64,000 bases of DNA, taken from Minisyncoccota bacterium. GTDB lineage: Bacteria > Patescibacteriota > Minisyncoccia > JAHIHE01 > JAGLIN01. Under the pieces are notes generated by a model. It had not been told where the DNA came from. It worked only from the letters and a program-made list of their open reading frames with translations, and made no database searches. Shown here in pieces: positions 446 through 57,886 of the stretch. The position numbers and the translations under genes were made by a program. Position 1 is the stretch's first letter, and each line of letters opens with the position of its first letter. Location: NCBI GenBank assembly GCA_041661265.1, contig JBAZUT010000005.1, positions 27,038-91,037 of the forward strand. The letters run 5' to 3'.

Positions 446-452
446 TGAGCTC

Positions 453-1263: not shown

Positions 1264-1281
1264 CCGAAATAGCCCAATAAT

Positions 1282-1668
1282 ATGAAAATCACGCCAAAAC
1301 AATATGCACTGAGCCTTTATGAATCTACGCAGAATTGCGATAAGGATGAGATCTCGAAAAGGATCTTGAGCTTCATAGATGTCTTAAGAAAGAACAATGA
1401 TCTGTCGCAGACAAACAAGATCATACAATACTACTACCAGCACTATAGGCAGGTGAAAAATATAACCAAGATCGAGATAAAAAGCAGCGAAAAGCTCGGG
1501 CCCAATATCATAAGCAAGATCCTGGAGAAATTCAATAAGCAGGTGGAGATCGAGGAAAAGATAGACCCCGCGCTTATCGGAGGAGTTGTCATCAGGATTA
1601 ATGACAATATTCTCATAGACGGAAGCATAAAGAGAAAGCTTGAAGATATCAAAGAAAAATTGGCATAA
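1282..1668 (+). CDS. atpH: F0F1 ATP synthase subunit delta (OSCP), short form
   Basis: 128-aa protein between atpF and atpA; C-terminal IDPALIGGVVIRINDNILIDGSIKRKLEDI matches the delta/OSCP C-terminal motif. Confidence 0.75.
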   Translation: MKITPKQYALSLYESTQNCDKDEISKRILSFIDVLRKNNDLSQTNKIIQYYYQHYRQVKNITKIEIKSSEKLGPNIISKILEKFNKQVEIEEKIDPALIGGVVIRINDNILIDGSIKRKLEDIKEKLA

Positions 1669-1701
1669 ATAATGATAATTTTATTTTTTAAACGCAAATA
1701 A

Positions 1702-3198: not shown

Positions 3199-3247
3199 AC
3201 CCCATTCTTTGTTAAAATGTCAGTATGCTAAAATGTTAAAATGATTT

Positions 3248-4156: not shown

Positions 4157-4405
4157 GCCACCGGATCTGCTTTGTGGCTCTAAGTCTGTTCTAATGAAAC
4201 AACTCGCATTCCGACAATCGTTCAGATATAATTCAAAAATTAAAAATCAAAATGCAAAATTGCAATGTAAAATTAAAAATTATTAAAGTTTTGATTTTTG
4301 GAATGTAATTTTGATTTTTGATCTTTGAACTTTGATCTACCCGCAATAAATATGGTCAAATCCCAAAACAACTAGTGATAATTCTTATAAATCTTAATAT
4401 GTTAA

Positions 4406-5791
<1,386 letters not shown>

Positions 5792-12734: not shown

Positions 12735-14033
12735 TTATATTTTATCCGCTTTCAATGCATTTCTGGCGATAACTCTGTCATCCCAGGGTATTTTCTTGTC
12801 CCCGACCACCATGAACTGCTCGGCTCCTTTGCCGGTAATAATAACCATATCTCCCATGGCCGCCATTTTTATCGCTCTTTCGATCGCTTCCGATCTATCA
12901 TATATCCTGAACAGATCTTTGCCCGCCTTCTTATTCCTTATGCCGGACAGGACCTGATCCATTATCTTCTCGGGATCTTCACTGTACGGATCTTCGTTGG
13001 TAACGATCACAACGTCCGCATATTCATCGGCAAGCTTCCCAGCTTTTGCTCTATACGATGCATCCCTGTCGCCGGTCCCGCCAAGAACTGCAATAAGCCT
13101 GTTTCTGACGTATGGCTTAACTGCGGAATAAACGCTTTTCAGCGAATCCGGAGAATGAGCATAATCCACGATCACATCGAAGTTCTGTCCTTCCGCGATC
13201 TTTTCAAGGCGTCCGGGAACCTCTTTTACGGACTCAAGTCCGGATTTTATGTTATCGGGAGAGATCCCTTCTGCGAGCCCGGCGCAAAATGCCGCAAGAG
13301 AATTATATATATTGAACTCTCCGATAAGCGGAATATTGACCGATCTTTTATCTTCTCGATTGAATATGATTGTGAAGCCGGATCCGGTCTTTGAAAAAAC
13401 TATCTCGCTCGCCCGGACCAGATTCGCATCCGGTATTTCACTGTAACCCTTAAGGCTGAAGACATATCTGTTGGCTTTCGTATCAGACAAAAAGCTTCGG
13501 AGGTCCTCGTCGTCATAGTTTATGATAAGATTCTTCAAATCTTTCGTTATCAGCGCATCATGAGAATTCTTATAATTCTCATAGGTCCTGTGATAATCGA
13601 GGTGGTCGCTCATCATATTCGTAAGAACGACCGTCTGATATTTTATCCCATAGTGCCTATATTGCACCAGGCCGTGCGAGGAAACCTCTATGATCGCATA
13701 ATCGCATTTTTCCTTTGAAGCTTTCTTCAGGAAATTATGAAGATAGAAAGGAGATGGGGTTGTGAGTTTGACATTGTTCAGCCATTTTGTCTTTCCGATC
13801 TGGAAATTTGCCGTGGAAAGCATCGCCACTTTATATCCGCCCGCTTCCATCACTTTGGCTATCATGTTCGTGGTTGTTGTTTTTCCTTTTGTACCGGCAA
13901 TTGCAATAACCTTCATTCTCCGAGCCGGAAAACCGTTAAGAACCATCGCCGCGACCGACCGGCATTTATGAAAATGCAGGATCATCCCATAGGGCACTAA
14001 TTTTCTTAACACTTTTTTAACTCTATATAACAT
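12735..14033 (-). CDS. Mur ligase family protein (MurE/MurF-like ATP-dependent amide ligase lacking the usual N-terminal domain)
   Basis: P-loop IAIAGTKGKTTTTNMI and the Mur ligase middle and C-terminal domain pattern (DYAHSPDSL, GGTGDRD). Confidence 0.65.
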   Translation of the reverse strand: MLYRVKKVLRKLVPYGMILHFHKCRSVAAMVLNGFPARRMKVIAIAGTKGKTTTTNMIAKVMEAGGYKVAMLSTANFQIGKTKWLNNVKLTTPSPFYLHNFLKKASKEKCDYAIIEVSSHGLVQYRHYGIKYQTVVLTNMMSDHLDYHRTYENYKNSHDALITKDLKNLIINYDDEDLRSFLSDTKANRYVFSLKGYSEIPDANLVRASEIVFSKTGSGFTIIFNREDKRSVNIPLIGEFNIYNSLAAFCAGLAEGISPDNIKSGLESVKEVPGRLEKIAEGQNFDVIVDYAHSPDSLKSVYSAVKPYVRNRLIAVLGGTGDRDASYRAKAGKLADEYADVVIVTNEDPYSEDPEKIMDQVLSGIRNKKAGKDLFRIYDRSEAIERAIKMAAMGDMVIITGKGAEQFMVVGDKKIPWDDRVIARNALKADKI

Positions 14034-25989: not shown

Positions 25990-26295
25990 TTAGCACACAT
26001 TCTCCATCCGTATAGCCTTAACGGGGCATTCTACATCGCAGATCCCGCAGCCTTTGCAAAAATCCATATCGGTTTCCCCGACTTCCATCTTTTCTCTTCC
26101 ATCCTCAAGCTTGATCTTTTTTACTTTTATCGCCATGTCAGGACAGAAAACAGCACACCGCATGCAGTGGATGCACCTGTCTTTGTCGCGAATGGGCATT
26201 TTTGCTTTCCAGCTTCCCGTTTTGAACTGCTTCGAGTTTCCGGCCTCGATTATTTTTCCGCCTATTGGTATTTCTTTTGAAGTTTTTAGCGCCAT
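25990..26295 (-). CDS. porD: pyruvate/2-oxoacid:ferredoxin oxidoreductase delta subunit (2x[4Fe-4S] ferredoxin)
   Basis: CIHCMRCAVFCP and CKGCGICDVECP motifs. Confidence 0.75.
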   Translation of the reverse strand: MALKTSKEIPIGGKIIEAGNSKQFKTGSWKAKMPIRDKDRCIHCMRCAVFCPDMAIKVKKIKLEDGREKMEVGETDMDFCKGCGICDVECPVKAIRMENVC

Positions 26296-31397: not shown

Positions 31398-32234
31398 TTA
31401 TTTTCCTTTTAACTTTTTTTGTTCTTGTATTTTTCTAAAACTTAGCCTGCTGATCACTGGTTTCCCCGTTTTCACTTCAATCTGTTTTCTGGCGTTTCCT
31501 GCTATACTTCCGCCTTCACGCGCCACCTTTCTATTTTCCGGAAAAGTTTTGGGCTCCCGCTTCTTGGAAATTTCAGTGGTCGCCGTTTCTGCCAGCATGT
31601 TCAAGACCAATTCTAAATTCGTCATATTATCCCGCAAATTTTCTTTTTTCAAATCTTTATGCTTTTTATAGTCTTTTGTTTTCAATCCTGCCCAGGCAAA
31701 AGAAATATCATCGGTTAAAACAGCGAATTCATCGCTTGTTTTTACGCCCCGCTCATTCCACTCATTAGTCAGATCTTTTCTGATTTCAATGCTTTTCAGA
31801 CGCAAGTCAACCCAGTTTTTAGAATAACCCATTTTAAGATAGGTTGCCAGTGCGCGGTGAATGGCTTTTTCAGGATCCTCAGTTTCTTCGATTCTTTCAT
31901 AGCCCACCCGCGCCAGCCAAAGCTTGAACGGCTCCGCCTTCGGCGAAGGAATAGACTGAATTATCCTGAACATTGTTTCTGTATCCGCCGCATCAGTTAG
32001 ATAAAACTTGCCATCTGCAGCTTGCATTTTCAGTTGGTTACATTTTGTAACCACCTCGCTTCCTTCTTGTTTTAAGCGGTTTTTTAGCACTTTCCAATAA
32101 TTCCTCGGATCAACGCTCGCATTTAACGCATCGACTATATCCACTACCGAAAAATACCATAGTTCTTTTTCATCATCCCAAATCCGACGGATTTTCTTAC
32201 CTTCAAAAATCGCTAATTGCTTATCTTTTTTCAT
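31398..32234 (-). CDS. Bro-N domain / DNA-damage-inducible protein D (DinD)-like protein
   Basis: N-terminal LAIFEGKKIRRIWDDEKELWYFSVVDIVDAL fits the Bro-N pattern; the rest resembles DinD. The track ORF (to 32306) runs into the repeat copy; the ATG at 32234 (MKKDKQL...) is preferred. Confidence 0.5.
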   Translation of the reverse strand: MKKDKQLAIFEGKKIRRIWDDEKELWYFSVVDIVDALNASVDPRNYWKVLKNRLKQEGSEVVTKCNQLKMQAADGKFYLTDAADTETMFRIIQSIPSPKAEPFKLWLARVGYERIEETEDPEKAIHRALATYLKMGYSKNWVDLRLKSIEIRKDLTNEWNERGVKTSDEFAVLTDDISFAWAGLKTKDYKKHKDLKKENLRDNMTNLELVLNMLAETATTEISKKREPKTFPENRKVAREGGSIAGNARKQIEVKTGKPVISRLSFRKIQEQKKLKGK

Positions 32235-32285
32235 TAAATATTTTAATGATTGAATAATTTGTAACTTGTTTTTCCGTATACGCTT

Positions 32286-32378
32286 CCGCCAAATCCATTG
32301 GAGCATAGATTATCTATTTCGGAAGCGGACAAGAAAATTCATTCGTGCAATATATGGCTATTTTAAGTTTTGACATTT
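32286..32378. repeat. copy 2 of the ~93-nt direct repeat
   Basis: See copy 1. Confidence 0.7.
32314..32376 (-). pseudogene. duplicated, truncated 5' fragment of the GT4 gene (MSKLKIAIYCTNEFSCPLPK*)
   Basis: Matches MSKLRIAIYCTNEFSCPLPKEIIY... of the 30224-31303 gene and ends with an in-frame TAG. Confidence 0.6.
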
Positions 32379-32462: not shown

Positions 32463-33128
32463 TCAGATGACAAATTTCTTCTTGAATTTACATTTAGGAT
32501 AATTAGAACAACCAAAGAATTTACCAAACCTGCCATTTATCTCTCTTAGTTTGCCGCCGCATGTCGGGCAAATATCGTTTGTCTTATTTTCTACGACTTC
32601 ATCGTCTTTATTTACCAGTTTTATCAACCTGAGCAATTCATCACCATCGACCAATTCAATCTGTTTATCTTCTGCGTATTTCTCAGCCTCTGTTGTAAAG
32701 ATGTTTGTTGTTATAAAGATTCCCTTTCCTTGCGAAAGCTTATCCATCAATGTACCAACAAATTCTCTAACATTACTAACCGATACTTTCGAAGTTATAT
32801 ATTTCTTGCACTGAATGTAATGTTTTATTCCGTTTTTCGTTACGACTACATCCACTCCTCCGTCATGAGAACCACCAACTTTTTCCGTTTGATATCCAAG
32901 TCGAAAATACATGTCTGCAATATAATTTTCAAAGTCATTAGGTCGCAATTTTCTTAATTTTCCAATTAAATCCTTATCTATGGTCCACTCGTTGACTTGA
33001 TTGATTTTTTTCTCAATCTTCTTGTTTTTTAAATAACGTGGTATCCATACTTCGACAGCTATTTTCATCAATGCAATAATAATTAGCAAAACCCATACTT
33101 GCCACAGAGAAAGAAACATTGTCAACAA
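32463..33128 (-). CDS. Mrr-like restriction endonuclease domain protein with an N-terminal transmembrane helix and a C-terminal topoisomerase-type C4 zinc ribbon
   Basis: Catalytic block DVVVTKNGIKHYIQCKKY fits the Mrr/PD-(D/E)xK pattern; CPTCGGKL...CSNYPKC zinc ribbon. Confidence 0.65.
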   Translation of the reverse strand: MLTMFLSLWQVWVLLIIIALMKIAVEVWIPRYLKNKKIEKKINQVNEWTIDKDLIGKLRKLRPNDFENYIADMYFRLGYQTEKVGGSHDGGVDVVVTKNGIKHYIQCKKYITSKVSVSNVREFVGTLMDKLSQGKGIFITTNIFTTEAEKYAEDKQIELVDGDELLRLIKLVNKDDEVVENKTNDICPTCGGKLREINGRFGKFFGCSNYPKCKFKKKFVI

Positions 33129-42851: not shown

Positions 42852-43250
42852 TCAAGAGGGGTTTGCATTTCGAACTGCATCCCTTTTATATACTTTATTT
42901 TTTAAATCCATATAAACGCCATCGATATTTTCAATTATTTCTTTATTCGTAAATCTGATTACTGCAATTCCATATTCGGATAATTTTTGTGTTCTGGTTT
43001 TATCATAATCCTCTTGTTCGGCATGAGAATCGCCATCTATCTCAATCGCAAGCAATAGTTTCGCGCAATAAAAATCAACTATGTAGTTCAGTAAAGGTTT
43101 TTGCCGTAAAAATTTATATTTTTCAAATTGCTTGTTGCAAAGCACCTTGTACCATAGTTTCTTTTCTGCAAATGTCGGATTTTTTCTGTTTTGACGGGCT
43201 TTTTCTGTAAGCTTTTTGTCATATGAGATATGTTTTTTTGATTTGAACAT
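42852..43250 (-). CDS. DUF559 (Vsr-like endonuclease fold) protein
   Basis: FRRQ-type block (KFLRQKPLLNYIVDFYCAKLLLAIEIDGDSH) and C-terminal ...VIRFTNKEI, the DUF559 pattern. Confidence 0.7.
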   Translation of the reverse strand: MFKSKKHISYDKKLTEKARQNRKNPTFAEKKLWYKVLCNKQFEKYKFLRQKPLLNYIVDFYCAKLLLAIEIDGDSHAEQEDYDKTRTQKLSEYGIAVIRFTNKEIIENIDGVYMDLKNKVYKRDAVRNANPS

Positions 43251-44657: not shown

Positions 44658-46229
44658 CTATCTGTCGTATCCGGAATATGACAAATTGAAGCTTTTATTT
44701 ATAAGCGGAAAATCAGGAACAACATTCCCCTTTACCGCATATGGGAATGCCGCCCAGTTCAAGAATGAAGCGTCTCTTGCCTGGACACGACTGATCTCGC
44801 CATTCCTGTCCGTTGAGACAAAATATACTATATTACCCCGCCATCCTTCGGTCACAGAAACGGAATATGAGCTATTTTTGAACTTTATTGCATCTTTTGA
44901 CCTTATTTCACCTGGAGGAAGAACATACAAAGCCTTTTTCAGGATATTCATCGAAACGTATACCTCTCTCACCTTTACCATGAATCTCGCATAAACATCC
45001 CTGGTGCTTTCCGTCGGAACGTCCACTTCGAATTTATCATATGCGGCATATGGATAATCAACTCTCACGTCAAGATCAAGCCCCATTGCTCGCGCCGCAA
45101 CGCCGCATAGATCGTGATCGATAGCGGCTTGAGCGTCCATGAATCCGGTTCCTTTCAACCGATTCATAAGAGAGTTGCTATCGAAACATATTTCCATAAC
45201 TTGCCTGAAATCCGATTCAATTGCCTCAAGGTTCGTCCGCAGCTTATTTGCGGCTTCCTCTGAAACATCTTTTTCAACTCCGCCTATTGAATTTACGCCC
45301 CTGAGGAATCTGCTTCCCGTGAGCTTTTCATTCCATTGCATGATCATCTCGCGAAGCCTTGATCCGTTTGCGCCTCCGAAGTTGAAACCCGTATCCAGCA
45401 TGATGAATCCTATGTCATTGAAATGATTTGCGAGACGCTCAAGTTCCGCATAAACCACTCTCAGATACTTTGCGCGCTCGGGAACATTGACCCCGCCTAA
45501 ATTTTCCAATGCCTGACAGAATGCAAGCGAATGGCTGAACGAGCTGTCGCCGGATACCCCCTCTGAAAGCGCAACTTTTTTCGCAAGCGGCAGCACCTCA
45601 AACAGCTTTTCGACGCCCTTATGTTTATATCCCAAAAGAGGTTCGAGGGAAATGATCTCTTCTCCCGCGACCGAAAATCTGAAATGCCCGGGCTCTATGA
45701 TCCCGGCATGGACCGGTCCGACCGGGATCTCATATATTCCCTCTCCTTCAACCTTTCTGAACTGGTGCGGCTCACCTTTGGCGTTCTCGGGCCTGGTATC
45801 CCACTTGAAATCTTTTCTGAGCGGATAAACTCCCAAGGGCCAGTTTTCATGCAAAATAACACGCTTTTGATAGTAATGATCCGTCGGAATCAGTCCGAAG
45901 AAGGTCATAATCTCCCTTTCGTACCAGCTTGATCCGTGTATTTTCACAACCAATGACGGAAATTCCTCGGTATTCTTCAAAGTTATATAAGGAACCAGGA
46001 ACATCTTTTCTTTCGGTATCCCAAAAACATAGAATATTTTGAATGCGCCGTTTTCGCTCCGTTCATCCGTCGCTGTTATGGTCATAAGCTGCAACTTCTG
46101 TTCATTGTGAAAGCCGACACAGACATTTTCAATGTCCCGAGCCGGGACTTCGAACATCAGAAGGTTATTCTGTTCTTCTGTCCTATAATTTGAAGGTATA
46201 TATTTTTTTATTATCTCTTCTTTGTTCAT
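44658..46229 (-). CDS. NuoC–NuoD fusion / [NiFe]-hydrogenase large-subunit-like protein lacking the NiFe-binding cysteines (Ehr-type)
   Basis: NuoC-like HPLRKDF motif (NWPLGVYPLRKDF), then the NuoD/HycE-like core (EIPVGPVHAGIIEPGHFRF). There are no RxCGxC (L1) or DPCxxC (L2) cysteine pairs; the protein ends ...YSGYDR. Confidence 0.7.
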   Translation of the reverse strand: MNKEEIIKKYIPSNYRTEEQNNLLMFEVPARDIENVCVGFHNEQKLQLMTITATDERSENGAFKIFYVFGIPKEKMFLVPYITLKNTEEFPSLVVKIHGSSWYEREIMTFFGLIPTDHYYQKRVILHENWPLGVYPLRKDFKWDTRPENAKGEPHQFRKVEGEGIYEIPVGPVHAGIIEPGHFRFSVAGEEIISLEPLLGYKHKGVEKLFEVLPLAKKVALSEGVSGDSSFSHSLAFCQALENLGGVNVPERAKYLRVVYAELERLANHFNDIGFIMLDTGFNFGGANGSRLREMIMQWNEKLTGSRFLRGVNSIGGVEKDVSEEAANKLRTNLEAIESDFRQVMEICFDSNSLMNRLKGTGFMDAQAAIDHDLCGVAARAMGLDLDVRVDYPYAAYDKFEVDVPTESTRDVYARFMVKVREVYVSMNILKKALYVLPPGEIRSKDAIKFKNSSYSVSVTEGWRGNIVYFVSTDRNGEISRVQARDASFLNWAAFPYAVKGNVVPDFPLINKSFNLSYSGYDR

Positions 46230-46241
46230 GTCTTTATCTCG

Positions 46242-47696
46242 TTATAAAAATAATTTAGATGCGCTCTCGATCAATCTCACGATAAAAGGCGGAAAGAATA
46301 ATCCGAAGCCCACAAGAATGACAGCGACAACCGCAAGCGGAGCTGTCGTTAGAAATCCGAATTCGCCTTTCTTTATCCCGGCAGGAACTTCCCCGAATAC
46401 CATTGATGTCGCATGCCTCAGGAAACCCACAAATACGATGATTATGCCGGCCATTGCAAGCGCGACTATTCCGGGATAACTTGATATTCCCGCGGATAAT
46501 ATATAGAATTCCGTGAAAAAGAGGCCGAATGGAGGGACTCCGGTTATCGCAAAAACCCCAAAAAGGAACAAAATACCTGTAAATGGAAGTGCGGACAAAA
46601 CCCCTCTGACATTCGATATTTTGGTTGAGCTGTATTTCAGAAAGATGTTTCCGCTGCAAAGAAAGAGCAGTGATTTTGCAAGTGAATGGAAGACCATATG
46701 AAGAAGTCCCGCCAAGACTCCCATCCCTCCGAATCCGAAACCCAAAGCTATTATGCCCATATGTTCGATCGATGAATAAGCAAGCAGGCGCTTATAGTTT
46801 ACCTGGACCAAAATGATAAAAGCTGCGATGATGATCGATACGATTCCGAAAAGAACCAGAAGTCCGCTTGAAAAATCCGAACCTATCATATTGTCAACTA
46901 CGATCTTGTTCCTCAAAATTGCAAAAAATGAAACGTTCAGTAGCACTCCGGAAAGAAGCGCGGAAAGAGGTACTGGCGCTTTGGAATGAGCATCGGGAAG
47001 CCAGGTATGCATCGGAACAAGTCCGGTCTTGGTGCCGAATCCCACCATAATGAAAATGAAAGCTACCTTTATGGCCAGCGGATCCTGGATCGCACCGATA
47101 CTTATCAGGTCTTTCCAGCTCACTATCAGCTCAGTTCCCTCAAGATGCGACGAAGACACTGCAAGCAATATTAGCGTTCCAAGAAAACCCAGAAGCAATC
47201 CGACCGAATTTATGATCAGATATTTCCATGCCGCCTCCATTGCTGATGGTTTGTTGTAAAAACTGATCAGGAACGCCGTGGACAGCGTCGTAGCTTCAAT
47301 TGCGATCCACATCAGTGCCGGATTAGAAACCATCACGGCAAAAAACATTGTAAAAATAAAAAGATTCAGAAGGATGAAGAACTGCTTGATCCTGCTGAAA
47401 CCTACTATATCCTTCTTGTTCTCTTCGTGAAGATATCCCATAGAATAGATGCCTGCCGAAAAACTGCCCACCGTGATGATAAAGATCAGCAGCGCGCTGA
47501 GCGAATCTACATAATAATATGTCGAGGAATATATTCCGCTGGCGATCGTTTGCGATATAACGCTTGCCGAAAAGAATATTTCCAGGGCCGAAGCCGCGAA
47601 CATTATATGTTTTATATATATTTTTTGCTCCCTTTTGACGAACGATACGGATATTGCCGCAAGGATGGGAACCAGAAGAAGAAATGTTAATAGCAT
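46242..47696 (-). CDS. NuoN/NuoM/HyfF-like antiporter-type membrane subunit
   Basis: 484 aa with ~14 transmembrane helices and proton-pumping antiporter-like blocks (WLPDAHSKAP). Confidence 0.7.
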   Translation of the reverse strand: MLLTFLLLVPILAAISVSFVKREQKIYIKHIMFAASALEIFFSASVISQTIASGIYSSTYYYVDSLSALLIFIITVGSFSAGIYSMGYLHEENKKDIVGFSRIKQFFILLNLFIFTMFFAVMVSNPALMWIAIEATTLSTAFLISFYNKPSAMEAAWKYLIINSVGLLLGFLGTLILLAVSSSHLEGTELIVSWKDLISIGAIQDPLAIKVAFIFIMVGFGTKTGLVPMHTWLPDAHSKAPVPLSALLSGVLLNVSFFAILRNKIVVDNMIGSDFSSGLLVLFGIVSIIIAAFIILVQVNYKRLLAYSSIEHMGIIALGFGFGGMGVLAGLLHMVFHSLAKSLLFLCSGNIFLKYSSTKISNVRGVLSALPFTGILFLFGVFAITGVPPFGLFFTEFYILSAGISSYPGIVALAMAGIIIVFVGFLRHATSMVFGEVPAGIKKGEFGFLTTAPLAVVAVILVGFGLFFPPFIVRLIESASKLFL

Positions 47697-47708
47697 AGAA
47701 GTGTATTA

Positions 47709-48365
47709 TTAATCTTTCAAATGTGTTATTTGCGTGATATTAAGAGAACCGAAATGCTTATACATCATAGAAATGAAAACCGTTGCTATTACGCTCCAAA
47801 CAAAGATATCGAAAATTATCCCCAGTTCCAGGACCAGAGTCTGTTTCAAGCCTATGATCGAAGCGAAAGAAACAATGCAATTTTCCAGCGTAAGAATGCC
47901 TATGATCTGTGATAGCGCTCCTCTTTTGTTTATTGTGAGAAAAAGCGAGGCCAATATGCCGCTGAGCGCGATCGGGATCGCACTTGAATATTCCGTAGGC
48001 ATGGATGTCAGCGATCGGAACACGGAAGAATTCGCAAGAACGACGATGAGCATGATGACTATGAGCGTCATCGGAACACTGAGATATGACGTAGTTGCAA
48101 ATTTCAACTTTTGCCTGTCGATCAATTTGAAAAAGAAGATTGGCATGATGACAACTTTGACGGCAAGCATCGCCAGGGCGCTGATGAAAAGTCCCGATGA
48201 GTTTTCCTGAAAAGAAAAGATGATCAGCATCAGGCTCACGATAAAAGATTGCGCCGCATAAATCATAACACTTGTCCTGCTTTCATTCATCAGCTGCAAA
48301 ACTATCACCGTGATAAACAGCAGAGTCTCCAGAAAATATAGCGAATTTACGATCATTTCCTGCAT
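47709..48365 (-). CDS. HyfE-like / NuoK-related small membrane subunit
   Basis: 218-aa polytopic membrane protein at the HyfE position of the module. Confidence 0.5.
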   Translation of the reverse strand: MQEMIVNSLYFLETLLFITVIVLQLMNESRTSVMIYAAQSFIVSLMLIIFSFQENSSGLFISALAMLAVKVVIMPIFFFKLIDRQKLKFATTSYLSVPMTLIVIMLIVVLANSSVFRSLTSMPTEYSSAIPIALSGILASLFLTINKRGALSQIIGILTLENCIVSFASIIGLKQTLVLELGIIFDIFVWSVIATVFISMMYKHFGSLNITQITHLKD

Positions 48366-48369
48366 AATT

Positions 48370-49302
48370 TTATATTATCGTTAAAACGATTGATATCATT
48401 CCAAGCACAAGAGAGGTCATCAGAAGATCCGGCAGTCTGAAAAATCGCAGTTTTGCGATAGTTGATTCCAGAACCGCCACGCTCGCGGACAAAACAAAGA
48501 CCTTCACGGCAAACAGCAGCAGCGAAACGATCACGGGAACAACCTCGGAAGTATTCGCGACCTGCCAGGGAAAGAATATATTCGCTGCAAGTGATATGAA
48601 GATGAGAAGCTTATTTGCCGCCGCCCATTCGATCAGAGCCAGCCTTTTTCCGGAATATTCGAGTATCATGGCCTCATGGATCATGGTCAGCTCAAGATGC
48701 GTTGCCGGATTGTCAAAAGGATATCTTGCGCATTCAGCGAGAAGCACTATATAGAAAGCGATGAATGCGATGAGGACCGGAGCAATGATATCGGAAACGG
48801 GCATCGACGAAAGCGCGCCTATCATATTCGGGAAATCGGACTTGCCGGTCAATAACGAAACTGAAAACAGCGAAAAAATAAATCCGCCTTCTGTAAGCGC
48901 CGCCACGGTCATTTCCCTGCTCGATCCCATTCCGCCAAAAGCACTGGAAGTGTCAAGTCCCGAAAGTGCCAGAAAAAAAGCTCCAAAAGCGATCAAATAG
49001 ACAAATACCAGAAAATCTCCAAGATACGAAAGCGACGCATCGGTGCTTATGGTCGGCACCCCAAACGAGATCGCTACCGTCAATGCAAAAAGAAAATAGG
49101 GCGTGTATCTGAATATCCAGGATGCATTTTCCGAGATAACTTCGTCCTTATTGAAAAGCTTCATGAGGTCGCGATATGGCTGGAATACGCTCGCCCCTTG
49201 CCTGTTCTGAAACTTCGCCTTGATCTTCCTAATCACACCGACGATCAATGGAGAAAATGCCGGAATGAGAAGCGACTGTATGATTAATAAAGCTATATTC
49301 AT
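48370..49302 (-). CDS. NuoH/HycD-like membrane subunit
   Basis: 310 aa with 8 transmembrane helices and NuoH-like blocks (RLALIEWAAANK). Confidence 0.6.
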   Translation of the reverse strand: MNIALLIIQSLLIPAFSPLIVGVIRKIKAKFQNRQGASVFQPYRDLMKLFNKDEVISENASWIFRYTPYFLFALTVAISFGVPTISTDASLSYLGDFLVFVYLIAFGAFFLALSGLDTSSAFGGMGSSREMTVAALTEGGFIFSLFSVSLLTGKSDFPNMIGALSSMPVSDIIAPVLIAFIAFYIVLLAECARYPFDNPATHLELTMIHEAMILEYSGKRLALIEWAAANKLLIFISLAANIFFPWQVANTSEVVPVIVSLLLFAVKVFVLSASVAVLESTIAKLRFFRLPDLLMTSLVLGMISIVLTII

Positions 49303-49306
49303 AATT

Positions 49307-51361
49307 TTATTTCGTTACCCAAATAAGAAGGATTATGATCGTCATAAAAATATACAAAAGATACAGATTGATATTTCCGCATTGGATCCTCTTTGCTATG
49401 TCCGAGATCCCTATGATCATGCGGGATACGGGTCCATAGATATAGCTTTTATATATATTTCCGATCCCAAGCGTGACAGTGCTGGATTTGGTGAAATATC
49501 TTATATTCGCATCATGATATTCGATATCGATCTGTTTTGTCGGCTTTAATATTCCGCTGAACATGGAAATTATCGAACGGGAAAAACTGGTAGCCGTAAT
49601 TTCCATCCGCGGATTTAGATTTGCTCCGCAATCCCATGTTCCATAGATCCTTTCCTTGCAAGATCCGGAGATCTTTTTTACCGCAAAATAGGCAATGGCC
49701 GCAAAAAGAACTATTAAAATAAATATCTGCATCATTGCAAGAGAAGCATGGTCGCTCCTGACACTGATGACTCCATTGCCGGCAGGCATAAACGGAATCT
49801 CATTTGAGAAAATCAGAAGACTATTCGTAATATTTCCGAGATAAATAACTACCCGATCGGAAAACACACCGAGAGCCAGGCACAGAAATGCAAGAACGGA
49901 CATTCCGAAAAGCAGAGTCCTGTCGGATTCCTTGGCGTTTTCGCTTTCATGGCTCCGGGATTTTGCAAGAAAAGTCACGCCGAACGCCTTCACAAAACAT
50001 GCGGCTGCAAGCCCTCCCGTAAATGCGAGAGAAACTATGGCAAAGATGAATACGCTTTTCTCAAATATTCCGAAAGTTCCGACTCCAGCAAAAAGCGCCT
50101 GATAGGTCAGCCATTCGCTCGCAAATCCGTTGAAGGGAGGCAGCGCTGATATTGCCACTGATCCTACAAGAAAGAAAAGCGCAGTATATGGCATTTTCTT
50201 GATCAATCCTCCATATTCTTCGATGTTGCGCGTGTGAGTTGCAGAAACGACTGATCCGGCTCCCAAAAAGAGAAGGGCTTTGAAAATAGCATGATTCATG
50301 GTATGGAAAAGAGCCGCAGCAAATGCGAGCGCAGCCAGCGTCATATTTTGCGCAGATATGAAAATCAGAGAGCTTCCAAGGCCCATCAGGATTATACCGA
50401 TATTTTCAACGCTATGGTATGCGAGCAATCGCTTGATATCGTGCTCGGTTATGGCATATAAAACGCCCAGGAGCGATGACACTGCACCAAGCACCAAGAC
50501 CAGCATCCCGAACCACATCGCATTGGAAGGGATAACATCGAAGAATAGCCGTATGATCATGAATATTCCAGTTTTTATCATTACTCCGGACATCAGCGCG
50601 GAAACCTGGCTTGGGGCCGCAGGATGCGCCTCCGGAAGCCAGATATGCAACGGTATAATTCCCGCTTTTGTTCCGAATCCCACCAGCATCAGAAGCGATA
50701 TTATTGCAAAATAGAACGGGGAAATATTCGCCGAAGCAAGTCGGATCGCATCGAAATCAAAAGAACCGGTCGCTGAATATATGAGCATGAACGCCAGGAT
50801 TATTCCCCCGGTCGCAATATGCGTCATTATGAAATATAAAAACCCTGCCTTAATATTCTCCTTATGGTCATGCTCAAAGATTACGAGAAAATACGAGACC
50901 AGAGACATCAGCTCCCAGACAACCAAAAAATATAAAGCGTCATTCGAGGTCACCACCAGCATCATGCTCGCGATGAATATATTATAGAAAAATCCGAACA
51001 GCCCTATATTGTACTTTCCATAGAATTGGCGCATATATCCGATCGAATAGACGGAGCTGAGAAGCGCGACCAATGAGATTATAAAAACGAAAAAAGCTGA
51101 CAGAAGGTCAACTTTCATATTTATCGGAAAAAGGAAAAATGTTTCGGTAGCTTTGAATGAAAAATTTGAATTGGATAGGATGACAGATACAGCATATAAA
51201 AGTCCCATGAAGGACCCGAAGATCGCGAAGCTATTGCCCCAAATATTCTCCAAATTATCATCTTTTTTTAGTACGGATATGAGGAGCGCTCCGATTGCGC
51301 CAAGAGCGAATATACCGAGTGAAATAAATAAACCTTCCTGAATAAAAAAAGCTGGAAACAT
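49307..51361 (-). CDS. NuoL/HyfB/MrpA-like antiporter-type membrane subunit
   Basis: 684 aa; HIWLPEAHPAAPSQVSALMSGVMIKTG conserved antiporter block. Confidence 0.75.
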   Translation of the reverse strand: MFPAFFIQEGLFISLGIFALGAIGALLISVLKKDDNLENIWGNSFAIFGSFMGLLYAVSVILSNSNFSFKATETFFLFPINMKVDLLSAFFVFIISLVALLSSVYSIGYMRQFYGKYNIGLFGFFYNIFIASMMLVVTSNDALYFLVVWELMSLVSYFLVIFEHDHKENIKAGFLYFIMTHIATGGIILAFMLIYSATGSFDFDAIRLASANISPFYFAIISLLMLVGFGTKAGIIPLHIWLPEAHPAAPSQVSALMSGVMIKTGIFMIIRLFFDVIPSNAMWFGMLVLVLGAVSSLLGVLYAITEHDIKRLLAYHSVENIGIILMGLGSSLIFISAQNMTLAALAFAAALFHTMNHAIFKALLFLGAGSVVSATHTRNIEEYGGLIKKMPYTALFFLVGSVAISALPPFNGFASEWLTYQALFAGVGTFGIFEKSVFIFAIVSLAFTGGLAAACFVKAFGVTFLAKSRSHESENAKESDRTLLFGMSVLAFLCLALGVFSDRVVIYLGNITNSLLIFSNEIPFMPAGNGVISVRSDHASLAMMQIFILIVLFAAIAYFAVKKISGSCKERIYGTWDCGANLNPRMEITATSFSRSIISMFSGILKPTKQIDIEYHDANIRYFTKSSTVTLGIGNIYKSYIYGPVSRMIIGISDIAKRIQCGNINLYLLYIFMTIIILLIWVTK

Positions 51362-51363
51362 AG

Positions 51364-51900
51364 TTATGATTTACTGTTATTTTTATCAATTATCTTCAAA
51401 ATTTGAAGCAAAGCGCAAAGGATCCTCTTTGGTGAAGGTGGATCTCCGGGAATCTTGAAATCGACCGGTATCACTTTTTCCACGCCATCCATTACGGCAT
51501 ATGAACCCTTGAAAATTCCGCCGTCGATCGCATCATCCCCCACCGCAACGACTATCTTCGGTTCAGGAGTCGCTTCATAGGTCTTTTTCAGGGCTGCGGC
51601 CATATTCCTGGAAACAGGGCCTGTGACCATCAGCATATCGGCATGCCTCGGAGATGCGACAAAATGCACGCCGAACCGCTCCACGTCATAAAAGGAATTG
51701 CCCAAAGCAGTCAGTTCCTGCTCGCAGGCATTGGTGGACCCGGCATCAACTTCTCTTATGGCAAGCGAACCTTTGAATATTTTCCTGATCTCTTCACTCA
51801 ACTTGGTGCCGATAAATTCAACGTCCTTTTCAGAATAGAGTTTTTCGGGCTCTATAATTGTTTTCGGAGTTGAAAATATTTTGGAATACATCCTCAGCAT
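51364..51900 (-). CDS. NuoB/HycG-like small subunit with the [4Fe-4S]-binding cysteines replaced (Ehr-type)
   Basis: Matches the NuoB core (VASPRHADMLMVTGPVSRNMAAALKKTYEATPEPKIVVAVG) but carries GDDAIDGG where GSCAxxGG is expected, GDPPSP where GCPP is expected, and a single Cys in the CCxxE region. Confidence 0.7.
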   Translation of the reverse strand: MLRMYSKIFSTPKTIIEPEKLYSEKDVEFIGTKLSEEIRKIFKGSLAIREVDAGSTNACEQELTALGNSFYDVERFGVHFVASPRHADMLMVTGPVSRNMAAALKKTYEATPEPKIVVAVGDDAIDGGIFKGSYAVMDGVEKVIPVDFKIPGDPPSPKRILCALLQILKIIDKNNSKS

Positions 51901-52037
51901 AATTTAATATAACCGAATAAAACACCGCAAATAGGCGGTATTCAGCATTTTCTTTCCTAAAATGTTGATATCTTGGATAAATGTATCAAAAAACTGCTCT
52001 CACTGGAAATCTCAACACCTATTTACAATAGCCTTTT

Positions 52038-52496
52038 TTAATATTTTGTCAACCTCCTCTTTAATTTTTTGATAAGATCCTCATCGCTTTCAAATTCAAC
52101 GATCTCGCATTTGCTTATCGAATTCAGACCATGGGCAAGCAGCGTGATCTTCTCTTCGGGCCTTTTTATTATGATCACCGGAATGCCGCTCCTGATGGCA
52201 TAACCGATCTCGATGCAGACTCCTCCGCTTTGAGGATCTCCGATGTATGCAAGAAGAAGGTCCGTTTCGTCCGTTATTTTTTTGTATTGCGCCATGAACA
52301 GTTCCCGAAGCGGAGGAAATGTTTTGCCCCAGCCATGATAGTCTCTGTGAGGTATCGTGATCTCATGCCCCATCTCTTCGATCCTATCCGTCGTATTTTC
52401 GAGCCATTTATTAAAATCGTCGGGAGTCCAGCCGTATTCCGCTCCTTCTTTTTTGATCGCAAGATTTGTGTATGGCGCCGCAAAATATATGCGCAT
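52038..52496 (-). CDS. nucleoside 2-deoxyribosyltransferase-like (Rossmann-fold) protein
   Basis: 152 aa; YFAAPY...D/E pattern and PVIIIK resemble the NDT/PF05014 family (weak). Confidence 0.4.
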   Translation of the reverse strand: MRIYFAAPYTNLAIKKEGAEYGWTPDDFNKWLENTTDRIEEMGHEITIPHRDYHGWGKTFPPLRELFMAQYKKITDETDLLLAYIGDPQSGGVCIEIGYAIRSGIPVIIIKRPEEKITLLAHGLNSISKCEIVEFESDEDLIKKLKRRLTKY

Positions 52497-56931: not shown

Positions 56932-57186
56932 ATGCACGATATCCATGCAGCCAACCAGATCCTGAAAACTGCGCTTGAATACGCAAATAAGAACAAGTTC
57001 AAGAGAATAAGCTCAATGACGATCGAGCTTGGAAAGATTGTGGAACATAATGAACTCATAACTCCGGATAACTTAAAGTATAATATCGGACTTATCTCCA
57101 AGAACACCCCTGCCGAAAATTGCGAAATCATAGTGAATCAATCTGACAGCAACGAATTGAAGCTGGTTGAGATCGACGGAGAATAG
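56932..57186 (+). CDS. hypA: HypA-like hydrogenase nickel-insertion factor, truncated form lacking the Zn-binding CxxC pairs
   Basis: MHD N-terminus (MHE Ni-binding motif in canonical HypA) and similar length and architecture to the HypA N-domain; only one Cys in 84 aa. Confidence 0.5.
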   Translation: MHDIHAANQILKTALEYANKNKFKRISSMTIELGKIVEHNELITPDNLKYNIGLISKNTPAENCEIIVNQSDSNELKLVEIDGE

Positions 57187-57338: not shown

Positions 57339-57869
57339 TCACATAAACAGATTCTCCGGATTATTCCTGTCCAGTTCCCATTTTATGGGATTATTTTGAA
57401 TATATCCACGGATCTCAAGCAATGATCTTTCATTGCGAATAACGTGGTCATAGAAAGAACGTTGCCACTGAAAATTTGTATCCGGATTTATTTCGCTAAT
57501 ACAGCGCGATGAAAATGTCTTGAAGCCGCGTATTATTTCAGATAATGAATATTTTTTGAATTGCTTGTCCGTAGTGACAGGTTTCAAACCTGTCACTACC
57601 ATCGCAATCGCGGTATTATCAATAGCAATGATTCCATGCATATGATTCGGCATAATAATCCATTCAACCAAAATACAATTTTTATAATGACTTGGCAAAT
57701 CCAACCAGCATTTTTTAGCGATTTCTCCGCACTTATTCAAAATCATTTTCCCGTCCTCAACTTTGCCAAAATATTCCTTCTTGTTTTTTATACAAATGGT
57801 CACAAAATAATACCCATCTTGTGAATAATCATAATCAGGTAATCTGTTCGATTTTCGGGATTTTAACAT
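57339..57869 (-). CDS. IS200/IS605-family HUH tyrosine transposase (RAYT-like TnpA)
   Basis: HUH motif MPNHMHGII and catalytic-Tyr block RSFYDHVIRNE. The track ORF starts with TTG at 57884; the ATG at 57869 is preferred. Confidence 0.75.
   Translation of the reverse strand: MLKSRKSNRLPDYDYSQDGYYFVTICIKNKKEYFGKVEDGKMILNKCGEIAKKCWLDLPSHYKNCILVEWIIMPNHMHGIIAIDNTAIAMVVTGLKPVTTDKQFKKYSLSEIIRGFKTFSSRCISEINPDTNFQWQRSFYDHVIRNERSLLEIRGYIQNNPIKWELDRNNPENLFM
57571..57599. repeat. 29-nt REP-like palindrome (gtagtgacagg-tttcaaa-cctgtcactac) lying in-frame inside the transposase ORF
   Basis: Perfect 11-bp stem; translated as VVTGLKPVTT within the protein. Confidence 0.7.
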
Positions 57870-57886
57870 GTTATCACGAAACAATA

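Follow-up and report, generated by a model that had tools for sequence, protein, structure and literature searches.

A six-subunit membrane complex of Patescibacteria, very probably of the Ehr type, with remodelled metal sites

Described Ehr complexes and their solved relatives

Ehr stands for energy-converting-hydrogenase-related. Such complexes of bacteria other than the CPR were reportedly treated by Coppi in 2005 and by Marreiros et al. in 2013. They occur in Margulisbacteria/Saganbacteria (PMC6349859), Sulfobacillus (PMC4378227) and Nitrospira (PMC10284858), and loci from Burkholderiales/Accumulibacter (L008-L031) were compared here. These other Ehr have the same subunits as the module described below (a small subunit, HyfB, NuoH/HycD, HyfE, HyfF and a fused NuoCD), and their large subunit likewise lacks the [NiFe] cysteines. 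Their gene order is B-D-E-F-CD-S (S-last), whereas in the CPR type the small-subunit gene comes first (S-first). The Margulisbacteria have a NuoB-NuoI fusion and keep the Fe-S sites (PMC6349859); the small subunit of the nearest proteobacterial Ehr also keeps four Cys, three or all four of which are missing from the CPR type.

Within Ehr, the sequences from CPR group as one monophyletic clade and lack the [NiFe] cysteines (Jaffe et al. 2020, BMC Biol 18:69, PMC7304191). The main text of that paper deals with the large subunit alone and goes no further than the conclusion that it 'likely cannot interact with H2'; these large subunits belong to the same protein family as EhrCD, the large subunit of the present module. 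A cluster-less small subunit, the absence of NuoI, a fixed S-first six-gene order, conservation of the remodelled pocket and ATP synthase linkage do not appear in that main text.

The closest solved relative for four subunits is E. coli formate hydrogenlyase (FHL)/hydrogenase-4 (Hyc/Hyf, group 4a; PDB 7z0s). The module shares with it an EPGHFR loop of hydrogenase type, an Arg of PRG type and the point at which the mature C-terminus ends, but lacks its [NiFe] site, the [4Fe-4S] cluster of HycG, the ferredoxin subunits HycF and HycB, and the formate dehydrogenase. Pyrococcus MBH and MBS (PDB 6cfw, 6u8y) and complex I have a homologous B/C/D module on a NuoH-like subunit with antiporter-like subunits; they differ in having at least three [4Fe-4S] clusters and a site of catalysis ([NiFe], polysulfide or quinone). 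Mrp antiporters (PDB 7qru, 6z16, 7d3u) share with the module two MrpA/MrpD-type subunits with the Glu/Lys set, a NuoK/MrpC-like small subunit and the lack of redox cofactors. Membership of the Mrp family was rejected, because the module has a NuoH-like subunit and a cytoplasmic NuoB/C/D cap that Mrp does not, and lacks MrpB, E, F and G; Mrp serves as a working analogy only.

Gene content of the locus

The host is a CPR/Patescibacteria bacterium with a tiny genome, and the locus lies in a 64-kb stretch of its DNA, analysed as a whole (the window). Six minus-strand genes (44658-51900), separated by gaps of 2, 4, 4, 12 and 12 nt, make up the module (Table 1). Every open reading frame was recovered at the coordinates assigned by the sequence-only reading, whose list of NuoB/HycG, NuoL/HyfB, NuoH/HycD, HyfE, NuoN/HyfF and NuoCD/HycE homologues is borne out by profile and alignment matches. 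In residue alignments EhrS matches HycG of 7z0s (4.9e-29), and the best solved relative of EhrCD is E. coli HycE (7.8e-75); an AF2 model of EhrS matches NuoB/MbhJ/HycG with probability 1.0. EhrB belongs to NCBIfam 'hydrogenase 4 subunit B' (NF005086; 683 bits, cutoff 667), aligns to HycC at 7.6e-76 and has an HycC-like C-terminal extension. EhrF reaches up to 447 bits against HyfF models, under their cutoffs, and EhrE is probably a fusion of a NuoJ/MbhD-like and a NuoK-like part. PF00361 is found in EhrB and EhrF only, which reduces the three antiporter-type subunits of the sequence-only reading to two. As that reading had noted, NuoI/HycF and NuoEFG genes are absent from the operon; none occurs in the rest of the 64 kb either. 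A Candidatus Paceibacterota MAG encodes a protein 100% identical to EhrCD, and more than 100 Patescibacteria proteins share 57-86% identity with EhrCD.

Table 1. Position of the module, its motifs and its upstream flank in the window
Feature	Position	Strand	Details
EhrCD, fused NuoC-NuoD/HycE-like large subunit, 523 aa	44658..46229	-	PF00329 + PF00346
EhrCD C-terminus PDFPLINKSFNLSYSGYDR, in place of ...DPCxxCxxR	44661..44717	-	conserved among Ehr of 37% overall identity
EhrCD L1 segment GVSGDSSFSH, in place of RxCGxCxxxH	45531..45560	-	S226, D228 invariant
EhrCD beta1-beta2 loop EIPVGPVHAGIIEPGHFRF	45675..45731	-	near-invariant in CPR and proteobacterial Ehr
EhrF, HyfF/NuoN-like antiporter-type subunit, 484 aa	46242..47696	-	PF00361 at 2.8e-54
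EhrE, HyfE-like membrane subunit, 218 aa	47709..48365	-	NF008556 65 bits, under cutoff
EhrD, HycD/NuoH-like, 310 aa	48370..49302	-	PF00146 at 1.4e-42; HycD of 7z0s 3e-44
EhrB, HyfB/HycC/NuoL-like antiporter-type subunit, 684 aa	49307..51361	-	PF00361 at 2.7e-60
EhrS, NuoB/HycG-like small subunit, 178 aa	51364..51900	-	PF01058 at 7.7e-26
EhrS PGDPP, in place of PGCPP	51436..51450	-	fourth ligand Cys replaced by Asp153
EhrS VGDDAIDGG, in place of GxCxxxGG	51517..51543	-	third ligand Cys replaced by Asp123
EhrS DAGSTNACEQE, in place of xxCxxC ligand pair	51715..51747	-	GSTNAC: Cys replaced by Thr56, Cys59 kept
Upstream intergenic region, 137 nt	51901..52037	-	promoter-like TTGACA-16-TATTGT at 52052-52025, consensus match only
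Nucleoside-deoxyribosyltransferase-like gene, 152 aa	52038-52496	-	between module and 3b hydrogenase

Metal sites of the cytoplasmic cap

Aligned with HycE and MbhL, EhrCD lacks both [NiFe] cysteine pairs, four of four Cys, as had been claimed: CGxC is replaced by SGDS (RVCGICGFAH by GVSGDSSFSH) and DPCxxC by NLSYSG (DPCYSCTDR by NLSYSGYDR). Its end point coincides exactly with that of mature HycE. The quinone-binding residues of complex I are also absent, Nqo4 Tyr87 being aligned with Gly227 and His38 with Ile177; the loss of both sets of ligands upholds the earlier statement that the module is neither a hydrogenase nor a canonical complex I. The derived SGDS / DFPLINKSFNLSYSG signature is common to EhrCD and other Cys-less (Ehr) large subunits, the proteobacterial ones having the SGDS motif and an identical C-terminus. 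This signature and the position of the CPR clade within Ehr (PMC7304191) agree with the proposed Ehr type. The module is very probably the CPR/Patescibacteria Ehr, a six-subunit membrane complex derived from Hyc/Hyf-type group 4 [NiFe] hydrogenases, without NiFe or Fe-S ligands.

In the small subunit, the [4Fe-4S] ligand columns of HycG and MbhJ are occupied by T56, C59, D123 and D153. The replacement of the cluster cysteines, as previously read, holds for three of four positions; Cys59 is kept. Among 119 homologous small subunits, the four columns contain T (109), C (115), D (119) and D (119), and cluster ligands are lacking in 40 of 40 operons of S-first gene order; a [4Fe-4S]-less small subunit across such operons appears to be new here. 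A non-standard cluster is implausible because the wider Cys-less family includes small subunits without Cys at any ligand position (SEGD, DAAD, DADN). Over its ∼2,400 residues the module contains 14 Cys, with CxxC nowhere present, compared with 14 Cys in the 256 residues of the adjoining 3b delta subunit. Since identical substitutions recur in 119 small and 119 large homologous subunits, a frameshift or misread region was ruled out as the cause of the lost Cys.

The complex could in principle still be a redox-coupled pump that receives or donates electrons, either via a partner docked to the cap, be it the neighbouring 3b hydrogenase, PFOR-derived ferredoxin or a further module, or via an unconventional cofactor, non-Cys-ligated or organic. 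Asp is an occasional ligand of Fe-S clusters, and other Ehr keep Fe-S, with four Cys in proteobacteria and the NuoB-NuoI fusion in Margulisbacteria. A complete group 3b [NiFe] hydrogenase (RICGLCPVIH and DPCISCSTH) adjoins the operon in the window and in an 84%-identical relative (L047), and the window also carries genes for POR-gamma and a PorD-like ferredoxin. The hydrogenase is real, as had been noted, but the gene facing it head-to-head is the nucleoside-deoxyribosyltransferase-like gene, not that of the small subunit, and the adjacency is confined to this single lineage among ∼40 S-first operons. The link with the module that had been implied is not supported, and such a restricted adjacency counts against electron transfer. 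An electron path from surface to pocket is absent because EhrS has no cluster and NuoI/HycF is missing; the absent Tyr and His of the quinone site and the relatives devoid of ligand-position Cys also count against electron transfer, as does the lack of a conserved partner, no conserved redox neighbour gene (NuoI, NuoEFG or other) being found in the 10-kb flanks of ∼40 loci. A redox-coupled pump is quite improbable.

All six genes are under purifying selection, with dN/dS of 0.03-0.08, the level of GAPDH and PGK, and a minimum of 0.031 in EhrS; between CPR classes, small subunits share 70-75% identity. In the large subunit, 94 columns are invariant in CPR and proteobacterial Ehr alike and cluster in the beta1-beta2 loop, S226/D228, EGWRG and the last 18 residues, while nearly all positions of the EhrD TM5-6 loop, PFDNPATHLELTMIHEAMILEYSG, are invariant. 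The near-invariance of the replaced motifs and coupling loops and the low dN/dS likewise appear to be new here. The ligands had been called erased: the Cys are indeed gone (save Cys59), but 'remodelled' is the better word for the sites, because the replacing residues are strongly conserved, and the cap is, judged by its sequence, remodelled and not decaying. The loss of all catalytic ligands, in CPR genomes that are under reductive evolution, might also suggest a non-functional relic or structural remnant, be it a dead hydrogenase operon without selection or an artefact of annotation or assembly. This reading, whose probability is close to nil, is effectively refuted by the data on selection and conservation: dN/dS is low in every gene, frames and gene order are intact in 40 of 40 S-first loci, which come from many samples and assemblers, near-invariance extends to the replaced motifs, and a 7.2-kb operon would be a costly passenger in a ∼1 Mb genome.

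Membrane arm, ATP synthase genes and possible function

The statement that the module may still translocate ions is consistent with the conserved Glu and Lys residues of its membrane arm. E150 (TM5), K232 (TM7), K263 (TM8) and the TM12 Lys (HAIFKALLF) of EhrB are invariant in CPR and proteobacterial relatives. The membrane Glu161 of EhrE is also invariant; EhrF keeps the TM5 Glu (IEATT), TM7 Lys (GTKTG) and TM12 Lys (LAKSLLF) and has Asn, not Lys, at the TM8 position.

The recurrent neighbour of the module is the F1Fo ATP synthase. Its genes occur in the 10-kb flanks of 10 of 40 S-first operons and of 0 of 46 S-last operons (Fisher p = 2.4e-4), a linkage that involves only about one quarter to one third of operons and whose statistics are inflated by common ancestry. 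In 7 of 28 evaluable loci from divergent subclades (61-65% identity), an atp operon of the same strand is located within 0.44-1.6 kb upstream. This linkage of S-first operons is new here. The window itself includes an atp operon with an H+-type c subunit and a glycolysis/acetate-fermentation cluster that surrounds the module, and no respiratory genes were found in its 64 kb. Nothing points to a Na+ cycle, as the c subunits look H+-coupled.

Ion movement without electrons is probable, because the metal sites are lost, the module is strongly conserved and atp genes are often adjacent. A plain antiporter would have no obvious need for a 700-residue cytoplasmic cap, the most constrained part of the complex, and a role in catalysis or ligand binding would account for the conservation of this cap no less well. 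The complex could be a gradient-coupled non-redox enzyme or a ligand-driven machine, whose remodelled pocket would bind a small molecule or ion, chemical conversion or binding being driven by ion flow in the membrane arm or driving that flow. Possible analogues are DabAB, or CupA on NDH-1, in which antiporter-type subunits power CO2 hydration. The pocket would comprise S226, D228, S229, E179, H182, R184, R464, N515, S517, Y518 and D522 of EhrCD and D123 and D153 of EhrS. No part of the large subunit is more conserved than the former active site, common to Ehr of only 37% identity; EhrS has the lowest dN/dS, the coupling loops are kept, and DabA, a precedent for non-redox complex-I-type modules, adjoins an Ehr operon (L013). 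That adjacency is seen in 1 of 49 loci, however, no conserved neighbour points to a substrate and no catalytic motif was recognised. Across the wider Cys-less family, the replacing residues of the small subunit vary at the third (D/G/E/A) and fourth (D/N/S) positions, which is unlike a fixed catalytic site. Such an enzyme or ligand-driven machine is rather unlikely.

A redox-independent, Mrp-like ion translocator working with the ATPase is the best, though tentative, reading; the absence of MrpB, E, F and G, the Asn in TM8 of EhrF and the partial atp linkage count against it, as would any partner encoded outside the 10-kb flanks that were covered. Gene content, lost ligands, conservation, purifying selection and atp synteny are observed; that ions are transported, in which direction and which ones, and what the cap does are inferred, and no ion-specificity motif is readable in the module. 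The complex would have given up electron transfer to become an Mrp-type secondary proton or cation device. EhrB and EhrF would conduct protons or cations, EhrD (NuoH-like) and EhrE (NuoJ/K-like) would provide the rest of the ion path, and the route would follow the conserved chain of membrane Glu and Lys. In complex I, it is through the beta1-beta2 and TM5-6 loops that the membrane arm is coupled to the active-site state. Both coupling loops are kept, in EhrCD and EhrD respectively, and the EhrS-EhrCD cap, once a catalytic module, may now cover the EhrD cavity as a lid or gate devoid of metal, or as a titratable site for an ion or ligand. Where a cell ferments and lacks a respiratory chain, the H+-type F1Fo ATPase would generate the proton-motive force at the expense of ATP from glycolysis, and the Ehr complex may use or shape this gradient to extrude cations, maintain pH homeostasis or interconvert gradients.

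A six-gene Ehr operon and its missing metal ligands

The module, an operon of the energy-converting hydrogenase-related (Ehr) type, consists of six closely spaced minus-strand genes. Homologs of the large and small subunits and of the HycD/HycC-type membrane subunits of group 4 hydrogenases are all present, with E-values of 1e-29 to 1e-76 against the Escherichia coli formate hydrogenlyase (PDB 7z0s: HycE 7.8e-75, HycG 4.9e-29, HycC 7.6e-76, HycD 3e-44). As this enzyme is the best solved relative, the ancestry of the module lies among the group 4 hydrogenases, in their Hyc/Hyf branch, and not in complex I proper. Scans of both strands of the 64-kb window found no Rfam family at gathering score and no tRNA, rRNA or riboswitch, and promoter and terminator scans did not rise above shuffled expectation.

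Features of the window around and beyond the Ehr operon
Feature	Position	Strand	Description
atp operon	218-5791	+	c (218-445), b, delta, alpha, gamma, beta; a-subunit tail at window start
P-type (E1-E2) cation ATPase	14033-16744	-	903 aa; Cation_ATPase_N + Cation_ATPase_C
Fermentation 'supercluster'	25990-62686	-	broken by Ehr and 3b hydrogenase genes
PorD-like 2x[4Fe-4S] ORF	25990-26295		within the supercluster
Mobile/defence-type genes	57339-57884, 42852-43250, 32463-33128, 31398-32306	-	IS200/Y1-transposase-like; DUF559 endonuclease-like; Mrr-type restriction endonuclease with Zn ribbon; Bro-N domain protein
Ehr operon	44658-51900	-	six ORFs; intergenic spacings 2, 4, 4, 12, 12 nt
EhrCD	44658-46229	-	523 aa; PF00329 + PF00346, NuoC-NuoD/HycE-type fusion
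EhrF	46242-47696	-	484 aa; PF00361; HyfF models match best
EhrE	47709-48365	-	218 aa; sole match HyfE model NF008556, 65 bits, under cutoff
EhrD	48370-49302	-	310 aa; PF00146, NuoH/HycD
EhrB	49307-51361	-	684 aa; PF00361; NCBIfam 'hydrogenase 4 subunit B', 683 bits (cutoff 667)
EhrS	51364-51900	-	178 aa; PF01058, NuoB/HycG family
Nucleoside 2-deoxyribosyltransferase-like ORF	52038-52496	-	152 aa; weak sub-threshold matches; between ehrS and divergent 3b hydrogenase
HypA-like ORF	56932-57186	+	84 aa; covers 1-67 of 112-position Pfam profile; after 3b hydrogenase

When the ligand columns are aligned to NuoB/HycG and NuoD/HycE, as the sequence-only reading had proposed, all but one of the ligand cysteines prove to be replaced. 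In EhrS, aligned to HycG and to MbhJ (the small subunit of Pyrococcus MBH), the first ligand pair changes from GSCNGC (the MbhJ sequence) to GSTNAC, the third ligand from GAC to GDD and the fourth from PGCPP to PGDPP. The four-cysteine site of the proximal [4Fe-4S] cluster thus reads T56, C59, D123 and D153, and the ligation of cluster N2 in complex I NuoB is equally lacking. The claim that the cluster cysteines are replaced is correct for three of the four, but Cys59 survives. In EhrCD, the RVCGICGFAH of HycE has become GVSGDSSFSH, with Ser at both cysteines of RxCGxCxxxH (likewise in 119 homologs), and DPCYSCTDR has become NLSYSGYDR, with Ser and Gly for the cysteine pair of DPCxxCxx(H/R); both motifs are absent, as had been claimed. 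EhrCD ends at the C-terminal residue of mature, protease-processed HycE. The quinone ligands are also missing: in a phmmer alignment to Nqo4 of Thermus thermophilus (2fug), Tyr87 corresponds to Gly227 and His38 to Ile177.

The six proteins together contain 14 cysteines in ∼2,400 residues and not one CxxC, to be compared with 14 cysteines in the 256 residues of the delta subunit of the nearby group 3b [NiFe] hydrogenase. The cysteine-rich delta subunit and a PorD-like 2x[4Fe-4S] ORF show that the organism makes Fe-S proteins, so that the loss is specific to the module. No NuoI/HycF or NuoEFG gene is found in the operon, in the window or beside ∼40 related operons, in agreement with the earlier claim for this DNA. 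Exactly six genes form the operon in every related locus; neither a seventh gene nor a redox partner is conserved with them. It is rather improbable that a cryptic redox function persists with the help of a docked partner or an unusual cofactor. With [NiFe] cysteines, three of the four N2 cysteines, quinone ligands and NuoI/NuoEFG all missing, the view that the module is neither a hydrogenase nor a canonical complex I holds.

Ehr complexes are defined by a large subunit that is homologous to those of group 4 but lacks both [NiFe] cysteine pairs, and their function is given as unknown (PMC6349859, PMC4378227, PMC10284858). EhrCD has this combination of homology and loss, and the remainder of the Ehr gene set is present: a small subunit, NuoH/HycD-like and HyfE-like subunits, antiporter-like HyfB/HyfF subunits and the fused NuoCD. 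The composition matches that of Sulfobacillus Ehr (PMC4378227) and of Margulisbacteria/Saganbacteria Ehr, in which NuoB is fused to NuoI (PMC6349859, Supplementary Note 4), and Nitrospira Ehr (PMC10284858) has the same subunit set. Jaffe et al. 2020 (PMC7304191) describe the sequences from the Patescibacteria (CPR) as a monophyletic clade in the Ehr subclade of group 4, without metal-binding cysteines, that 'likely cannot interact with H2'. A place of EhrCD within the Ehr clade finds support in the published tree of Jaffe et al. 2020 and in a derived signature, made up of SGDS and the C-terminus, that EhrCD has in common with other large subunits of the Cys-less kind. The assignment to the Ehr type is right.

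Conservation of the remodelled pocket and the membrane arm

Counted over 119 CPR small subunits, the four ligand positions are occupied by T (109), C (115), D (119) and D (119), and 119 CPR large subunits follow the patterns ER[VI]SGD[ST]SF.H and FNLSYSG.D. The nearest relatives outside the CPR in GTDB genomes belong to Burkholderiales, Accumulibacter, Sulfuricella and similar bacteria (∼37% identity), and in their large subunits the SGDS motif recurs and the C-terminus, DFPLINKSFNLSYSG, is identical to that of the CPR proteins. Across 119 CPR and 26 proteobacterial large subunits, 94 columns are invariant in both groups, clustering in (i) the beta1-beta2 loop EIPVGPVHAGIIEPGHFRF (residues 167-185), (ii) S226/D228, (iii) EGWRG (461-465), with the Arg that overlies the active site in [NiFe] hydrogenases, and (iv) the last 18 residues. 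Conservation is far lower in the NuoC-like N-terminal domain. An AlphaFold2 model of EhrS of moderate confidence (pLDDT 68) matches NuoB, PSST, MbhJ and HycG at probability 1.0; its only low-confidence part, residues 56-83, is the segment that usually wraps the cluster.

Between the window and L047, an 84%-identical relative, dN/dS is 0.031 for EhrS, 0.073 for EhrB, 0.043 for EhrD, 0.045 for EhrE, 0.077 for EhrF and 0.050 for EhrCD, against 0.028 for GAPDH and 0.074 for PGK, all of these values being rough because dS exceeds 1. Judged from the sequences, the metal sites are remodelled and conserved, under purifying selection as strong as that on core glycolysis genes. A decaying relic or pseudogene is ruled out by dN/dS and the intact synteny, and it is scarcely conceivable that the module is a relic without function.

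A substitute metal site formed by Asp, Asp, Cys and Thr was also considered and rejected: D123 and D153 are invariant in close CPR relatives, yet no ligand set is conserved more widely. In the wider Cys-less family, the third ligand position is G, E or A, the fourth is N or S, and E, A, V or T stands in place of the remaining cysteine. Since the replacement residues vary across this set and some members have no ligand cysteine at all, a substitute Fe-S cluster or fixed metal site is unlikely.

The membrane arm, to go by its sequence, looks functional. EhrB carries the TM5 Glu (E150, WELMS), TM7 Lys (K232, GTKAG), TM8 Lys (K263, MIKTG) and TM12 Lys (HAIFKALLF), all invariant among CPR and proteobacterial relatives; in EhrF the Glu of TM5 and the Lys of TM7 and TM12 are retained, and the TM8 position is Asn. 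Nearly all positions of the EhrD TM5-6 loop (PFDNPATHLELTMIHEAMILEYSG) are invariant. In EhrE, Glu161 in the membrane is invariant within a LENxIV motif; the evidence here is supportive only, since generic helical bundles reach similar scores. Homologs also match PF00420 weakly. Three antiporter-type subunits had been claimed, but only two of the proteins belong to PF00361, in contrast with the three of complex I (NuoL, M and N). The Mrp antiporter shares MrpA/MrpD-type subunits with TM5 Glu and TM7/TM12 Lys; it differs from the module in comprising MrpB, MrpE, MrpF and MrpG and in having no peripheral arm.

Gene order and loss of the small-subunit cluster

A protein annotated in a Candidatus Paceibacterota MAG matches EhrCD at 100% identity, and identities of 57-86% are reached by more than 100 proteins of Patescibacteria (Parcubacteria, Uhrbacteria, Kerfeldbacteria, Magasanikbacteria, Levybacteria and Howlettbacteria). 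The small subunits of proteobacterial Ehr retain the full set of four ligand cysteines. An exhaustive search with EhrS gave 6,324 matches at E <= 1e-3; of the 150 representative clusters nearest to it, about 25 lack three or four ligand cysteines, with replacement patterns such as SEGD, DAAD, DADN, NEGD, SAES, ECED and DVDD; the named members of these clusters are Chloroflexota and Dehalococcoidia. Many four-Cys small-subunit relatives (representatives P0247, P0253, P0255, P0260 and others) run to 250-330 aa; their NuoB-like part is C-terminal and is preceded by an extension of ∼100-180 aa that may be a NuoI-like fusion as in Margulisbacteria.

A metagenome scan added 80 loci, which, pooled with the genome loci, show two architectures. 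The order of the window, with ehrS first (S-B-D-E-F-CD), occurs in 40 loci, and the small subunit is Cys-less in all 40. Among the 46 loci with ehrS last (B-D-E-F-CD-S), 35 have four cysteines and 11 are Cys-less (DADN, DTDN, DPDN). The [NiFe] cysteines are absent from every large subunit, S-first and S-last alike. At the level of sequence, total loss of the cofactor ligands is a trait that defines a sub-type and is tied to the S-first gene order. The Ehr complexes described from Margulisbacteria and Proteobacteria have Fe-S clusters, either in the small subunit or in a portion resembling NuoI; their absence sets the CPR type apart, although such clusters are not known to be defining for Ehr. 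A plausible order of events would be loss of the [NiFe] site (Ehr), loss of the cluster in some lineages and then the S-first order in the CPR-type clade.

The Cys-less S-last loci (L083, L085, L091, L092, L094, L098, L104, L112, L118, L123 and L133) have large subunits that read SGDE/SYAG, and several give no match to the HyfE-like EhrE by tblastn; named cluster members with related ligand patterns are Chloroflexota and Dehalococcoidia. In L050 (4857-16673), from a MAG labelled Candidatus Firestonebacteria, a CPR-type S-first operon (D-C-D-D in the ligand columns) immediately follows a gene of the cytochrome c552 family (NrfA-like), with CODH/ACS (CdhC) and a ferredoxin gene alongside, an arrangement that suggests transfer beyond the CPR or mis-binning; if the binning is right, the S-first Cys-less type is not strictly confined to the CPR. 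L052 and L044 are near-identical CPR-type loci (91% identity) with the same sigma70/Dtd/SmpB neighbours, on contigs of 2,787,247 bp and 866,016 bp respectively. As 2.79 Mb exceeds a typical CPR genome, L052 could be a chimeric long-read assembly or come from a non-CPR host. In both loci an intact NuoH-like gene had been overlooked by the gene caller and was recovered by tblastn.

The ATP synthase neighbourhood and a proposed working

The recurrent neighbours of the operon are the genes of the F1Fo ATP synthase. In 7 of the 28 S-first loci with enough upstream DNA (L001, L049, L051, L055, L056, L070 and L071), an atp operon on the same strand ends 0.44-1.6 kb upstream of ehrS. The order is atpD-atpC-ehrS in L001, with an atpC-ehrS spacing of ∼60 nt, and L051 has a complete atpI-a-c-b-delta-alpha-gamma-beta-epsilon set ahead of the six Ehr genes; in L003, L065 and L078, atp genes lie 2-4 kb downstream. 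Flanking atp genes thus occur in 10 of 40 S-first loci against 0 of 46 S-last loci (Fisher one-sided p = 2.4e-4, a statistic weakened by shared ancestry). The linked loci are mutually 61-65% identical, as divergent as any other pair. This recurrent operon fusion suggests that the two complexes work as one unit.

The window's own atp operon lies 39 kb from the module. Its c subunit has the H+-type motif AFAEAIAIY and no Na+ Q/S/T signature; Na+ coupling, as it might be deduced from the ATPase, finds no support, the c subunits of both the window and L051 carrying the H+-type AEA motif. The P-type cation ATPase is a second primary ion pump of the window and is relevant to ion homeostasis.

The 3b hydrogenase is genuine: RICGLCPVIH and DPCISCSTH are present in its alpha subunit, which is accompanied by a beta (Fer4_22), a gamma (FAD/NAD) and a delta subunit. 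A head-to-head arrangement with a real [NiFe] hydrogenase had been claimed; the hydrogenase is real, but the 152-aa deoxyribosyltransferase-like gene separates it from the module. This ORF is conserved in L047 (83% identity) and absent from other Ehr loci. The HypA-like ORF may be without its C-terminal zinc-binding part. Coupling to the 3b hydrogenase was rejected as a general explanation: the two are adjacent only in the window and L047, in none of the 80 metagenome loci and in no other genome locus. A link to inorganic-carbon uptake was likewise dropped, DabA being found at L013 only (1 of 49 loci). At L013 (12218-17049, Candidatus Accumulibacter phosphatis), DabB-DabA directly follow the Ehr operon (DabA: PF10070, 792 bits; DabAB is a cation-coupled inorganic-carbon pump), with two more antiporter-like genes behind them.

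The module sits within a cluster of glycolysis and fermentation genes, with PfkB, iPGM, enolase, PGK and GAPDH on one side, aldolase and TIM on the other, and POR-gamma, acetate kinase and a phosphotransacylase nearby; in another locus, L007, the module lies between GAPDH and PGK. The supercluster as a whole also holds the PorD-like ORF, glutamate dehydrogenase and a thioredoxin-reductase-like gene; its aldolase is of class II, its phosphotransacylase is of the PTAC type, and of pyruvate:ferredoxin oxidoreductase only the gamma and delta parts were found. Mobile and defence-type genes are dispersed in the metabolic cluster, the DUF559 endonuclease-like ORF being directly downstream of GAPDH.

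Catalogues of Ehr complexes go back to 2005, and in most speculation on their function a redox partner (formate dehydrogenase, ferredoxin or quinone, for example) is taken for granted. From the present analysis there is close to an even chance that the CPR complex, like Mrp antiporters, transports protons and/or cations with no redox chemistry involved, to shape or use the ATPase gradient. The ATPase would build this gradient from glycolytic ATP, and the EhrS-EhrCD cap would close or gate the EhrD cavity or else provide a titratable or ligand-binding site above it. The proposal is based on the absence of Ni-Fe, Fe-S and quinone ligands and of any electron-input or ferredoxin-type subunit, the intact membrane charge chain, the conserved cap and coupling loops, purifying selection, the recurrent atp linkage and fermenting hosts without respiratory chains. 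The extreme conservation of the cap fits at least as well with its main rival, a conserved pocket where ion flow would be coupled to the performing or sensing of some non-redox reaction, on the pattern of DabAB or CupA; nothing points to any substrate, however, and this alternative is considered unlikely.

Ion translocation without redox chemistry would be part of a broader and more tentative scenario, in which the CPR and some Chloroflexota, possibly with a few other anaerobes, stripped Ehr of its last Fe-S cluster, moved ehrS to the first position and repeatedly fused the operon to the F1Fo operon. The result would be a complex-I-type machine without a redox cofactor that, together with the ATPase, is the sole membrane-energetics system of these ultra-small fermenters. 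The series from hydrogenase to Ehr with the cluster, to S-last Ehr without it and to S-first, atp-linked Ehr would, in this inferred order, represent the stepwise exaptation of a redox enzyme.

The CPR Ehr clade and its missing [NiFe] cysteines are already known. In the Ehr literature that was covered, no mention was found of the loss of the small-subunit cluster, the gene order or the ATP synthase link; relative to this literature, the tie between cofactor-ligand loss and S-first order, the conserved remodelled pocket, the glycolysis-level selection and the ATP synthase linkage are new. CPR Ehr is a natural experiment, in which the ion-translocating arm and coupling loops are selected like glycolytic enzymes and yet no electron site exists; hypotheses for this clade are therefore narrowed to non-redox ones. 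It offers a minimal, metal-free, six-subunit target for cryo-EM and transport assays, and the new points make the question of Ehr function experimentally tractable. If the scenario is true, the metal-free pocket and coupling loops would show how electron transfer can be replaced by another means of gating or driving the membrane engine of complex I, and the general function of Ehr would be independent of redox chemistry. The finding also bears on how membrane potential is managed in Patescibacteria, which are without respiratory chains.
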